DNA from: Octopus vulgaris
Taxonomy: Eukaryota
DNA: 64,000 nt
Direction of reading: 5' to 3'
Assembly (NCBI GenBank): GCA_951406725.2
Contig: OX597821.1
Coordinates: forward strand, 114,142,001-114,206,000
Shown: positions 3,310-63,116 of the stretch, one piece after another
Position numbering within the stretch: position 1 is the stretch's first letter
Layout of the letters: every line of letters starts with the position of its first letter
Position numbers and translations under genes: made by a program
Notes under the pieces: generated by a model
The model's database searches: none
What the model was told of the DNA's origin: nothing
Seen by the model: only the letters and a program-made list of their open reading frames with translations

Positions 3310-3692
3310 ACATCTCCTGTTAGAGCATGCGTGTTCATAACACACGTGATTCATAAATGTAAGAAGATTTTGAGACACCGCGATGTTTCGACCTTATTGA
3401 ATGTCTCCTCAGTCGAAGCTATCTCTGGACCAATGAAACTAACAACGGAACAGGCTCTTATTAATAGACATGGGGAAATAAATTATTTGCTGATGCCTGC
3501 TGGTGTCTGCCAAACTTAAAATTCAGGTGTGAACGGAGCACAGTAAGAATTCGAACAATAACGTATCTAGCCATTCCAGGGATGAGTTTCACTGAAAAGA
3601 CATAAGTAAGGTCTAAACATCACGGTGTCTTAAAATCCACTTACATCAATCGATCACGAGTATTCTGAACAAACATCGCCTAAAAGGAGATG
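3310..3692. mobile_element. Old fold-back element (diverged inverted arms ~3310-3417 / 3587-3692), probable Penelope-like pLTR remnant
   Basis: Diverged inverted arms, each containing a hammerhead-like motif. Confidence 0.6.
3368..3417 (-). ncRNA. Minimal type-I hammerhead ribozyme, canonical core
   Basis: UUCGA-CUGAGGA-GAC(loop)GUC-GAAAC-AUCGCGGU-GUC-UCAAA. Confidence 0.75.
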
Positions 3693-5271
3693 TTCTCCAA
3701 TTTTAAAAAGAACAGCGACTAGCATATTCATGTTCGAATCTGCCAGAACTTATTGAGAATGAATAATTATATTAATTTTTTTCCTTAAAATGATTAAAGC
3801 ATCAAAGGTTTATCATAATTAAAATATGAACACAACACCGCTTGTTAAGCGGTAGTAGCAGACAAACACAGGCACAAAGGCAAACACACACACGCAGAGG
3901 CACGTATATATATATATATATATATATATATATATATATATATATACATACATACATACATACATACATACATATATACATACATACATACATACATACA
4001 TACATACATACATACATACATACATACATATGAACGTCCGCAATAATGCTATGATACTTAACATAACATGAAAGCAATTTTAACTCATTAATTTTTTTCT
4101 TTAATTTTGTGCTGGCTAAACGTTGAAGATGTGAAAATTATGATTATTTAGGAGAGACACATGCAGTGTGCATCTTCTGCAGAATGTGTGTGGTCTCGTC
4201 TTGTATAGTTATCACTGTCCAATGTATGCCGTGAGTTTTATCAGTTGCAGACATGCTAGGGATTCTTCTAAATAAACATTACCAGAAAATTAGTAATAGA
4301 TGCACACAATTTTGTTTCATAATATACACACGAAAATATGTATGAACTACTTTATGCGTCTATATGTATATATATGTGTATCTACAAAATATATCAGGTA
4401 TGTATGTATGCATGCATGTATGTGTATATATATATATATATATATATATATATATACACATACATGCATGCATACATACATACCTGATATATTTTGTAGA
4501 TACACACACATATATATATATATATATATATATATATGTATGTATGTGTGTGTGTATGTGTTTGTGTGTCTGTCTGTCTGTCTATATATACGGACATATA
4601 TACACACACACAAATACATACATATATATGTATATATATATATATACACACATACATACAGACATACACACAGATAGATAGATAGATAGATAGATAGATA
4701 GATAGATATATATAGATAGATATAGATATAGATATAGATAAACATATATATATAACGCTTATATGTATATATATATATGTATATATATATATATGTATAT
4801 ATATATATATGTATATATATACATATATATATATATATATATATATATATATATATATATATAAGCATGATTTTTTATTTGTCTTAATGACTCGAGCCCT
4901 ACACGTATGAATAAATGGATGTATGGCAGTATCCATGTATATAAGTATAAACACACACTCACACACACACATGCGCGTGTGTGTATGTGTGTGTGTGTGT
5001 GAGTGCGTGTGCACACGCACATCTATTTTAATAGTCACTCATAATTAGCTCTACGTACAATATAAGCGCACGGCGTGTGCACAGTAAACCAGTAAGCCTA
5101 ATATTTTCCTTCAGCTAACAGTTCCGCCCAAGATAATTATCCCGATATTCGCCTTATTATAAATTTAACAAAATTTAAATACCAATTCTGACACAAATGT
5201 GCGAAACTTTTTTTTGTGTGTGTGACTATAACACAGACTAATCCATCACTTCCTGGTTAATATTTGCTCAC

Positions 5272-5481
5272 CAGTAGTAGTAGTAGTAGTAGTAGTAGTA
5301 GTAGTAGTAGTAGTAGTAGTAGTAGTAGTAGTAGTAGTAGTAGTGGTGGTGGTGGTGGAGGTGGTGGTGGTGGTGGTAGTAGTAGTAGTAGTAGTAGTAG
5401 TAGTAGTAGTAGTAGTAGTTGTGGTGGTGGTGGTGGTGGTTGTTGTTGTTGTTGTTGTTGTTGTGGTGGTGGTGGTGGTGG
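5272..5481. repeat. Compound trinucleotide microsatellite (AGT)n(GGT)n(AGT)n(GGT)n(TGT)n(GGT)n
   Basis: Directly visible. Confidence 0.97.
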
Positions 5482-5694
5482 TTTCTTTTATTCAAGTGTC
5501 ATTTCATTTTTTTACTTCTCTTATATTTGTAATAGTTCTTTTGTTGGTAGGCGTATGGGTGGTTGTATGTCACCACTCCACTTCATAATTGTTATTCACG
5601 TACTTTGTTAATTAAACGAGTGATTATGTCATCAGTAAGCGTTGACGATATCCCCCATTCAACTATATTCTGTAGTGTAACTTAGATTGATTAT

Positions 5695-5860
5695 TTTACT
5701 AGATACGTCCCTCTTCATTAAATACGTGACGAAATATGCTGGTACTTCGACCTGTGTATTTCTCGCCCTTAAACAAGTAAGGAGATATTCTGGAATTTCG
5801 TGGTATGTATCTCCCATTATTAGATACGTGACGAAATATTCTGTTACCACGAGACGTGCA
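5695..5860. repeat. Degenerate ~60/120 bp tandem repeat (ATACGTGACGAAATAT core)
   Basis: Recurrent CATTA..ATACGTGACGAAATAT and AGATATTCTG words. Confidence 0.55.
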
Positions 5861-5906
5861 TTTCTTATCAAAAGATAATAGTACCTTGTATTCCTTCAGG
5901 TATATA

Positions 5907-7196
5907 CGAGGGACGTTCAATAAGTAATGCCTCTGACCCACTTGCACTTGTTTGATCTAGCTGAAATTTTGCATGTGCAATCATTTATATCTCTATAGAG
6001 TGAGTGGCAAATTACAGCTCTGAATTAATTGTGGTTTCTGATTTACAGGTGTTTGAACCAAGTCAAGTGTGAAATGGAGCCTGTTGAGTGTCGAGCAGTG
6101 ATCCGGTTTTTGCATTTGAAAGGACGCACACCACGGGAGACTTTTGATGAAATGAAAGTAACTTATGGTGATGATGCCCCATCATATGAACTTGTAAAAC
6201 TCTGGCATCGTGAATTCAAACATGGTCGGAACTCTGTGGAAACAGCTCCCAGATCTGGTCGCCCCTTCTGCCATTGATGAGGCATCTGTCCGTCAAGTTG
6301 AGGCTGCCATTTTGGAAGATCGACGCATAACTATTCGCCAAATAGCCCATGAGGTCAACATTAGTATCGGGTCTATAGAAACTATCATTCATGACCATTT
6401 GAATATGCAAAAGGTGTCTGCCAGATGGATTCCCAGGTTGCTCACGCCTTTCCAGAAGTAAGAACGGGTCGAGTGCTCGAGGGTGAATTTGGAGATGTGT
6501 CAAGAAGATGAGTCAAAATTTTTCAAAAGACTGATTACACAGGATGAAACCTGGGTCCATCACGATGATCCAGAGACCAAAGCCCAGTCAATGCAGTGGA
6601 AGCACCGTGACTCACCTCCTCCAAAGAAGGTAAGGATGCAGCCCTCCGCTGGTAAGGTCATGCTCACAGTCTTCTGGGACCAGGACGGAGTAGTGATGAC
6701 AGATTTCCTGGCAAAGGGTACCACAATTGCAGGAGCCTATTATGCTTCACTTTTGAGGAAATTAAGAGAAGCTATCAAAATCAAGAGGCGGAGCAAGATC
6801 AGCAAAGGCATCCTCCTCCTGCAGGACAACGCTCCGGTCCACAACTCGCTTGTCGCCAGATCAGAAGCACAGGCGTATGGCTATGAACTCCTCCCCCATC
6901 CCCCTACTCTCCTGACCTTGCACCCTCTGATTTTCACCTCTTCCCAGTCATGAAGTTGTTTTTGAAAGGAAAGCGTTTCCCAGATGATGCAGCCTTGATT
7001 TCTGAAGTCGCGTTCAGGTTGGAGGACCAAGCTGGGGTCTTCTACAAAAACGGTCTCCAGAGCTGCATCAAACAATGGGAGAAATGCGTAACTCTGGGTG
7101 GTTCCTATGTAGAAAAAGACTAATAACTGTGCCAAGTTTCGTTGCTCTACTGTTATGGGAAGTGGGTCAGAGGCATTACTTATTGAACGCCCCTCG
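5907..7196 (+). mobile_element. Full-length mariner (DD34D-type) element, 1290 bp
   Basis: TIRs CGAGGGACGTTCAATAAGTAATGCCTCTGACCCACTT / AAGTGGGTCAGAGGCATTACTTATTGAACGCCCCTCG, TA TSD. Confidence 0.96.
6074..7123 (+). pseudogene. Mariner transposase pseudogene
   Basis: MEPVECRAVIRFL, WIPRLL, TQDETWV, LQDNAPVH, PDLAPSDF motifs; frameshifts near 6265 and 6905, stop at 6459-6461. Confidence 0.93.
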
Positions 7197-62137: not shown

Positions 62138-62283
62138 TATATATATATATATATATGTATATATGTATGTATGTATATATATACATTTATATATATACAT
62201 ATATATATATATATATATATATATATATATATATATATATATATATATATGTGTGTGTGTGTGTGTGTGTGTGTGTGTGTGTG

Positions 62284-62490
62284 TGGAAAAAAAGTCAAGG
62301 GAGGAAATGCTAAAATCATTTTTAAAAAAACATTTTTTCAGTACCGGTTTCGGTCACTAAGACTTTAAAGTATGAAAAACAATTAAATTTTGGAAAAATT
62401 AAGTGAAAATTCTATTACAATATTTGCATAGTATTCAAAGACAAGGGGCATTTTCTTTCTTTCTGCCTGTCTCTGTCTCTCTTGTTTACT
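62284..62490 (-). mobile_element. Diverged partial copy of the 61255 family
   Basis: AAAAAAGTCAA..AAATGCTAAAAT..TTCAGTACCGGTTTCGGTCA. Confidence 0.65.
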
Positions 62491-62519
62491 CGACGTATGT
62501 ATATGTACATATACATATA

Positions 62520-62920
62520 CATTCCCAACTACATGGTTCCAGGTTCAGTCCCACTGCGGAGCACCTTGGGCAAGTGTCTTCTACTATAGACACGGGCCTA
62601 CCAAAACCTTGTGAATGGATTTGATAGACGGAAACTGAAAGAAGCCCGTCGCATATACATATATATATATATAGATAGATAGATAGATAGATAGATAGAT
62701 AGATAGATAGATAGATAGATAGATAGATAGATAGATAGATAGATATGTATGTATGTATGCATGTATGTATTTGTATGTATGTATTTGTGTATCTGTGTTT
62801 GTAGCATCGCTTGATAACCGATGTCGGTGTGTTTACGTCCCAGTAACTTAGCGGTTCGGTAAAAGAGAGAATAAATCATGGCCGCAGTCAAATGACTGAA
62901 ACAATTAGAAGAATAAAAGA
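62520..62920 (+). mobile_element. SINE family A, partly deleted
   Basis: Head and tail motifs. Confidence 0.8.
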
Positions 62921-62929
62921 ATGTGTGTG

Positions 62930-63116
62930 TGTAGGGAGAATTCACAAAAAAAAAACACAAGATGAAGGCAGGTGGTGTAGACAACAAACAGATGTATTAG
63001 TATAACGCTCGGGAAGCGAAAAAGTCTTTCACTTTTCGAGCCTAAGCTCTTCCACAGAAAGGAACACAGAAAGAAACAAGGAGAGAAAATAAAGATTGTG
63101 TAGCGGCTAGTGATCA
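62930..63116 (-). mobile_element. Hammerhead-like short repeat related to the 10630 family
   Basis: CUUU-CUGUGGA-A-GAGC(UUAG)GCUC-GAAAA-GUG-AAAG at 63026-63061. Confidence 0.6.

Follow-up and report, generated by a model that had tools for sequence, protein, structure and literature searches.

Hammerhead ribozymes in the terminal repeats of Penelope-like elements, and in the non-coding units known as retrozymes, are already published as kinds of element (PMC4209133, PMC7229834). The minimal hammerheads of Penelope repeats are described as forming many families per genome, having U3-A8 cores, lying in opposite-strand pairs and cleaving weakly as dimers (PMC4209133); they occur in the pseudo-long terminal repeats (pseudo-LTRs) of the Penelope clades Neptune and Poseidon (PMC8557442), and their cleavage was dispensable for Penelope insertion in vitro (PMC11167929). 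Metazoan retrozymes reach more than 6,000 motifs in 16 families in coral, ~5,000 in mussel and up to 120,000 in axolotl (PMC7229834), and have been argued to derive from Penelope elements in a study where one of nine dimers cleaved (Li et al. 2026, preprint 10.64898/2026.07.22.740005). In giant squid, 235 Rfam hammerheads were counted (PMC6962438), and a 2026 octopus repeat annotation reports 31 recently active Penelope-like families, the word 'ribozyme' being absent from its main text (PMC13282606). Here, we analyze a window of 64,000 nt, the whole stretch of Octopus vulgaris DNA from position 114,142,001 to 114,206,000 of contig OX597821.1 (genome of 2.8 Gb, 227 contigs), which is AT-rich, contains many microsatellites and holds 17 insertions of 13 hammerhead families (A to L and B63; Table 1). 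We consider it highly probable that these insertions are Penelope terminal repeats (families B, D, and F) together with non-coding tandem units (families A, E, J, and K) likely copied by the same enzymes.

Coding parents, tandem units and insertion marks

Genomic copies of each family were gathered by genome searches that scored only the best 40 candidates each. As judged from the coding sequence joined to them, the insertions of families B, D, and F represent the 3' ends, truncated on the 5' side, of Penelope-like elements that encode a reverse transcriptase (RT) and, by Pfam in D and probably in B and F, a GIY-YIG endonuclease, which bears out the Penelope link of the original prediction, made from the letters of the window alone. 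In family D, overlapping stop-free stretches of two copies match PF00078 (E 1.2e-6; 28.8 bits, cut-off 29.6) and PF01541 (E 1.4e-4; 22.6 bits, at the cut-off), in the order RT, then C-terminal GIY-YIG endonuclease, upstream of the repeat. Thirty D loci are 99-100% identical, with variable 5' truncation and, in some, a 33-nt tail; most copies are single 5'-truncated arms. Family D is a young Neptune-type Penelope-like element. Family F, at loci selected by open reading frame (ORF), has an RT match (PF00078, E 1.6e-5), and is read as Poseidon-type from the absence of a zinc linker. The segment upstream of family B leads to loci that combine RT with the C-terminus of an endonuclease and a long tract rich in CA. 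At one of them (L374), RT (tblastn E 1e-11 to the D protein) is followed by the endonuclease C-terminus and the B upstream segment, and at two others (L401/L388 and L399/L376) the endonuclease sequence continues to the B hammerhead; family B thus descends from a Penelope-like element whose 3' region is long and CA-rich.

Families A, E, J, and K are retrozyme-type non-coding units of 330-549 bp. Elsewhere in the genome, family E forms head-to-tail dimers and trimers of a 549-bp unit, and family K head-to-tail units of 474 bp, often with an inverted arm. Family A is tandem at three of 23 loci, with a period of 325-338 bp (unit ~330 bp), and family J shows only a terminal redundancy of ~330 bp. 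No ORF of at least 100 aa lies within the E and K window units. In both K and E, the 3' ends are fixed at (TA)n and the 5' arms are inverted, as in Penelope insertions, and K has a tail as well; the tandem units are likely copied by Penelope-like enzymes.

Family E words were also found in sequencing runs X2, X11, and X17-X19 of several organisms, the X2 pieces being 90-99% identical; none of the runs with such words is listed as RNA. Contigs of four runs span the E unit, and one shows a 548-nt tandem joint beside a TA tract, which establishes neither a circle nor transcription. These matches hint at a family E retrozyme common to related species.

A separate class of non-coding ribozyme retroelements, moved as RNA circles or by another retrotransposon's enzymes, could in principle stand behind most families: four of them are tandem and lack ORFs, six have no parent found, and the terminal redundancy of E is as expected from a circular or tandem template. 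However, three families are joined directly to Penelope ORFs, and K, E, I, and L share an inverted arm, a tail or the (TA)n signature with the coding family D, so that we regard such a class as unlikely. The non-coding ribozyme retroelements of the original prediction match A, E, J, and K; B, D, and F are the truncated ends of coding elements, and the other six families are assigned to neither group.

The insertions themselves carry the marks of Penelope copying. Long inverted arms are present in eight of the 17, fewer than the 'mostly fold-back palindromes' first proposed; arm lengths and junctions vary between copies, and an extra tail sits on one arm. The combination of 5' truncation, inverted 5' copy and short one-end tail is found in D, F, I, K, and L, and the arms of C, I, and L mostly invert within ~40 nt of the core. 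Insertion in (TA)n, scored as (TA)5 within 60 nt past the 3' end (random background 7.8%), was seen at 27/31 ends in D and 30/33 in B, and about eight of the 17 window insertions adjoin (TA)n, but the family at 20.3 and 31.2 kb (F) avoids it (2/81 ends); the proposed microsatellite targeting is borne out for several families. For K, the tract is at the tail end in 10/23 copies, the others shown continuing into the next unit; at the shorter end it was found in 6/15 copies of I, 3/12 of L, and 4/6 of C, many copies running on into the tail. Penelope inverted copies, tails and a microsatellite bias have been described (PMC8557442), as have extension from both strands, two internal starts, AT-rich targets, and a dispensable, protein-assisted cleavage (PMC11167929).

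On this basis, we propose a route in three steps. (i) Template: the hammerhead fold is predicted to self-cleave mainly as a dimer, and the RNA copied would likely be uncleaved, because insertions retain the core lying 5' of the cut; tandem units would likely cleave into monomers and may circularize. (ii) Initiation: the element's GIY-YIG nuclease would nick AT-rich DNA, often (TA)n, and reverse transcription would begin close to the 3' end of the RNA, either where the body ends or where the tail does. (iii) Arrest: reverse transcription would usually halt early, and therefore only the repeat and its hammerhead would be inserted; extension from both nicked strands would place two arms head to head, as in the fold-backs, of which one arm bears a tail. 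The majority of copies, single or folded back, are likely dead debris. A fold-back does not supply the partner for a hammerhead dimer, because its two hammerheads lie on opposite strands and cannot dimerize in one RNA. Read-through RNA of a fold-back is instead predicted to form a long hairpin, 70-96% paired, and transcribed fold-back insertions would give long double-stranded RNA.

Near-perfect palindromes in TA tracts also resemble miniature inverted-repeat transposable elements (MITEs), and a 2-kb palindrome at 43.2-45.2 kb has no hammerhead at all; by this account, the fold-backs would be MITE-like DNA transposons or palindromes born of replication at (TA)n, with the hammerhead as a passenger. 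The variable arms and junctions, the tail on one arm, and the mostly single, 5'-truncated D copies are marks of retrotransposition, and make this origin very unlikely.

The tRNA-like head of family F

Family F runs, in order, from the ORF stop through a 30-nt spacer, a tRNA-like head, (AAT)n and the hammerhead to ~100 nt of 3' end. In the ORF-selected loci, the head follows in 17/20 and the hammerhead body in 18/20. The head has a candidate A box from position 8 and the G of a candidate B box at 53, a spacing that may be that of a tRNA. ARAGORN at a 90% threshold called six F heads among 31 matches, none at 100%, and also called the head of the genome's common short interspersed element (SINE); with default settings it found no tRNA in the window, and Rfam run on one F copy found neither a tRNA nor a hammerhead. 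At the relaxed setting, L084 also gave what looks like a gene for tRNA-Lys(CTT) or a close pseudogene of one.

The 5' ends of F copies cluster at this head. Twenty-nine loci chosen by their last 87 nt only yielded 47 arms with the body, 23 without the head upstream and 24 reaching it; among the latter, 20 start at -7 to +12 relative to the head, three extend into the ORF and one starts at +18. Similarly, in loci retrieved incidentally, four of nine arms start at the head and four extend upstream. The window holds both forms: the copy at 20.3 kb begins with the head within a 12-bp target duplication, and the copy at 31.2 kb reaches into the ORF. Initiation by RNA polymerase III (Pol III) just before the head would explain the start pattern. 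A 5-bp hairpin (-7 to +5) on which the copy folds back would explain it less well; the perfect palindromic junctions are accounted for by this hairpin. Thirteen of 16 full F bodies lack a TTTT stop. Nine F matches in a 600-kb sample suggest ~40,000 arms.

The tRNA-like promoter in the F repeat likely makes a short RNA that is copied by the parent element in SINE fashion. We lean, by a modest margin, towards the fuller proposal that family F is a SINE born within a Penelope-like element, which captured a Pol III promoter and had its hammerhead RNA copied by the parent RT and nuclease into tens of thousands of sites. Were this so, Penelope enzymes would be linked directly to hammerhead SINEs and, through shared insertion marks, to retrozymes, and the genome concerned would hold a few hundred thousand ribozyme folds, high-copy A6U, G3-C8, and G17 cores among them. 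A literature search mostly outside subscription papers found no description of a Penelope-driven SINE.

We also considered whether the F head is an independent SINE joined to another body, and rejected it: the other body is a ~600-bp repeat inserted in (AAT)n, after which the F body resumes (L072, L307). This repeat inserts in (AAT)n tracts including that of F (L093:5750-6400, L072, L307, and L285), with ~10 matches in the 600-kb sample.

Hammerhead folds, window catalogue and genome-wide density

Every site of the original prediction proved to belong to a dispersed repeat family with a type I fold. In alignments of genomic copies, all 13 families have a complete type I minimal hammerhead: positions 3 and 8 pair, GAAA and A15.1-U16.1 are in place, stems I and II form, and stem III is palindromic. 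Completeness stands at this family level only: in the window, the hammerheads are intact in eight of the 17 insertions, the other nine (at 3.4, 20.3, 31.2, 32.45, 40.4, 50.4, 57.8, 62.3, and 63.04 kb) having core or stem mutations. The strongest check comes from sites first picked out on decayed copies: the core lost at 50.4 kb is restored in the 16 other copies of family J, which have a 6-bp stem I, a 4-bp stem II, and a 6-nt palindrome, and the decayed motif of family A at 3.4 kb is likewise restored across 24 copies. Nor are the families all unrelated, as had been supposed: the sites at 10.7 and 57.8 kb are one family (B, 85% identical) with that at 63.04 kb (B63) as its sister, and those at 11.25, 61.3, and 62.05 kb are one family (D).

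The stems covary across subfamilies. An anchor that excluded stems I and III found 49 B-group copies outside the B-selected loci, one of the 49 being the window's own. Their outer stem I pair reads C-G in 24, G-C in 11, and A-T in four; it is Watson-Crick in 40 of 49 (permutation mean 18.6, maximum 30). In K, stem III shows a double change in four of 28 copies. With CpG columns excluded, the core varies less than the flanks in A (0.067 vs 0.189) and J (0.094 vs 0.178), a comparison in which alignment quality may favor cores; in H and G, the core is as variable as the flanks. Stem III palindromes would form duplexes of -7 to -15 kcal/mol in five of seven intact motifs, with -1.7 kcal/mol for B and -0.2 kcal/mol for L. 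Core variants are frequent: among 69 motifs (below), U3-A8 (as in D) accounts for 20, U4C for 16, A6U (B63) for nine, and G3-C8 (L) for three. U3-A8 is listed among natural variants, and A6C is reported as slow (PMC3088659). B63 has U6 with a free N7, so the invariant A6 is absent, and G17, reported to impair minimal hammerheads (PMC3884650), occurs in 21 of 29 copies picked by the 10.7-kb query but in 3/49 incidental copies. An invariant A6 together with a base other than G at 17 is kept in 11 families, and lost in B63 and the 10.7-kb subfamily.

Several points weigh against reading the insertions as ribozyme-bearing Penelope copies. The covariation counts represent about three subfamily events, not independent copies. 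In all seven intact motifs, the constrained monomer hammerhead lies 2.4-7.7 kcal/mol above the minimum-energy fold. The G17 and A6U families should be poor ribozymes; therefore, the fold may be kept for some function other than cleavage. On the coding side, no full-length intact element was present among the loci retrieved, the B endonuclease match is weak (E 7e-4), with a GIY-YIG-like motif visible, and Pfam gave no GIY-YIG match on the F fragment, though such a motif is visible there too. Six of the 13 families (B63, C, G, H, I, and L) yielded neither a parent ORF nor a regular tandem array among 7-30 loci each, in searches none of which was aimed at long copies. Extension towards autonomous elements with RT and GIY-YIG, which had been suggested as a check, gave Pfam support for both domains in D, RT by Pfam in F and by tblastn in B, and no parent among the loci gathered for these six families.

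Core-like and GAAA motifs can be read at the predicted sites, many of them with deviations. A strict hammerhead descriptor found no match in the window, as it does not allow for the bulge, variant core or long stem II present in most families, and a first variant descriptor found three. We relaxed the core (3-8 pair C-G, U-A or G-C; U4C; A6U; any N17) and the stems (a one-base bulge or mismatch at the stem II foot, a stem II loop of up to ~90 nt, and stem I of at least three pairs), while requiring a perfect stem III palindrome. This descriptor, tuned after the window had been seen, found 11 motifs within eight insertions. In 60 local dinucleotide shuffles it averaged 0.3 and never exceeded two, and it found none in the reversed or complemented window. 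In a replication sample not used in tuning (80 spaced 10-kb stretches on 26 chromosomes, 800 kb in all; score threshold >=10), it found 52 matches, or 65/Mb (bootstrap 46-85), against 1-5 in five shuffles, five in the reversed and five in the complemented sequence. Extrapolating at 60/Mb net of background, there would be ~170,000 intact-fold motifs genome-wide, and this kind of element is unusually dense in the genome. Once decayed relatives of 16 multi-locus clusters are included, the 800 kb hold 105 (131/Mb) and the window 21. The 69 motifs of sample, flanks and window fall into 25 sequence clusters, nine of them at two or more loci, in line with the very diverse population first supposed. 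A library of 222 motifs searched on the window revealed no additional family, and no hammerhead family appears among the 150 of 379 Rfam matches listed for it, which are microRNA-type and lie on microsatellites. At least 10 more hammerhead families were seen outside the window, several with a U3-A8 core and long stem II (loci with such families: L063, L064, L065, L080, L082, L084, L085, L088, L093, L107, and L120).

The window is ~2.6-fold richer in motifs than the spaced sample (P ~0.004, block resampling), as a host-selected cluster of working ribozymes regulating a local transcript might be. Yet nine of its 17 insertions are decayed, the flanking 200 kb holds six motifs (30/Mb, below the sample average), the descriptor was tuned on the window, and the cores of H and G decay like their flanks; such selection is very unlikely, and given the sparse flanks the window is not a special local cluster. 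Chance matches in AT-rich, palindrome-rich DNA, to which the zero of the strict descriptor and the background of 1-5 per 800 kb might point, are refuted by the excess over shuffled sequence (11 vs 0.3 and 52 vs 1-5), by independent copies that restore the decayed A and J cores, and by covarying stems.

Table 1. Hammerhead-bearing insertions in the window (window coordinates; strand given where a single one applies).
Insertion	Coordinates	Strand	Features
Family A	3368..3630		Decayed fold-back pair: hammerhead - at ~3368-3418, decayed partner + at ~3580-3630
Family B, 3' end	10638..10828	+	Intact-fold hammerhead 10694-10728, G17; ends at (TA)n
Family C, fold-back	10848..11138		Flanked by two (TA)n tracts; hammerheads 10883-10945 (-, intact) and ~11004-11066 (+); U4C core, bulged C at stem II foot
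Family D, 5'-truncated 3' end	11183..11603	-	Hammerhead 11235-11272, U3-A8 core; adjoins (TA)22
Family E	13612..14277	-	One 549-bp unit, 73-bp terminal redundancy (13612-13684 = 14161-14233), 44-bp inverted 5' piece; hammerhead 13800-13864
Family F, short copy	20141..20418	+	tRNA-like A/B-box head from 20165, (AAT)n, decayed hammerhead (core 20320); 12-bp target duplication 20141-20152 / 20407-20418; 11-nt inverted tail
Family F, long copy	31133..31610	-	Penelope ORF end, tRNA-like head from 31373, (AAT)n, hammerhead core 31242, stem I mutated
Family G	32284..32604		Inverted arms about - strand hammerhead ~32428-32479, one stem I mismatch
Family H, fold-back	40112..40520		Decayed hammerheads ~40358-40412 (+) and ~40180-40230 (-)
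Family I, fold-back with tail	42730..42945		Adjoins (TA)n; hammerheads 42763-42800 (-) and 42817-42854 (+); stem II of 2-3 bp under GNRA loop
Family J, hammerhead	50384..50427	+	Core decayed here: G5 and G8 to A
Family K, fold-back	51556..52292		~95-nt tail, in (TA)n; intact hammerheads 51686-51784 (-) and 51968-52067 (+), 12-nt palindromic stem III, C17
Family B, second copy	57677..57866	-	Stem II decayed, core 57808
Family L, fold-back with tail	60352..60672		Hammerhead 60429-60479 (-), G3-C8 core; + arm without core
Family D, fold-back	61229..62138		Arms ~440 bp, ~33-nt tail on left arm; (TA)n at both sides; hammerheads 61316-61353 (-) and 62040-62077 (+)
Older D-related copy	62287..62487	-	69-73% identical; absent from the original prediction
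Family B63, sister of B	62940..63095	-	Core CUGUNGA (A6U), core 63057, stem III mutated here

Other features of the window were noted in passing. At 10638-11603, families B, C, and D are stacked about two TA tracts, an insertion hot spot. The near-perfect nested palindrome at 43161-45208 is made of SINE copies and centered on a 137-bp TA tract; searched for a hammerhead, it has none, and it is either a real fold-back duplication or an assembly artefact. Tandem partial copies of an abundant SINE lie at 36515-37000 and 23334-23922 with a 184-bp period; an abundant SINE of the genome is presumably of the octopus OK type. ORF fragments at 785-1153 and 6462-6953 presumably belong to a mariner-type transposase, and one at 2488-2901 to another transposase N-terminus; those at 39561-40055 and 52422-53093 we take, from their motifs as for the preceding ones, to be 3' ends of long interspersed elements (LINEs) of the RTE and CR1 types. 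Elsewhere, an unbroken ORF of 342 aa for a Tc1-like transposase was found at L381:34-1059.

Comparison with known systems

The octopus families are much like the Penelope pseudo-LTR hammerheads described in PMC4209133, with many families, a palindromic stem III, an extra base at the stem II foot, U3-A8 cores and mostly solo truncated copies. Along the same lines, opposite-strand pairs 100-700 bp apart, a 30-40-bp tail and a microsatellite bias are reported for Penelope hammerheads (PMC4209133, PMC8557442). The two differ in scale, ~170,000 intact folds standing against ~9,000 in Xenopus tropicalis and ~2,000 + 1,300 in Schistosoma mansoni (PMC4209133), counts that are only roughly comparable, as the descriptors differ. 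If the extrapolation holds, these folds would be a sizeable unannotated RNA class. They differ also in their cores, the high-copy G3-C8, A6U, and G17 families of octopus not being among the Penelope hammerhead variants that we found described in PMC4209133 and PMC8557442. Our literature search found no described octopus hammerheads and no A6U or G3-C8 variants, in a search mostly outside subscription papers and supplements, which may contain such variants.

Families A, E, J, and K resemble the non-LTR retrozymes, which are tandem, lack ORFs, carry a single type I hammerhead per unit and have been proposed to be Penelope-derived and -dependent (PMC7229834, 10.64898/2026.07.22.740005). At 474 and 549 bp, K and E exceed the 150-450 bp of published retrozymes (PMC7229834), and the arrays here have at most three units. 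In addition, the marks of Penelope insertion are seen on K and E themselves, as an inverted arm and a 3' end fixed at (TA)n, with a tail in K, whereas the preprint 10.64898/2026.07.22.740005 used co-occurrence and similarity. The young coding family D, the young retrozymes E and K, and the G17 and A6U spreaders, whose cores are predicted to be crippled, allow two questions to be put to natural sequences: what Penelope hammerheads do, and whether the enzyme proposed to move animal retrozymes does so. What the window adds is the scale, the natural core variants (G3-C8, A6U, and G17), the Penelope marks on retrozymes, and a likely Penelope-born SINE.

For that SINE, the closest counterparts are SMalpha and Sjalpha of schistosomes, short dispersed repeats in which a Pol III-type promoter is followed by a type I hammerhead (PMC6765202, PMC8490949). 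SMalpha is described there as tandem, with single copies losing propagation, and with no partner named. In contrast, the head of family F lies in the terminal repeat of a coding Penelope element, and its short copies start at the head and keep it.

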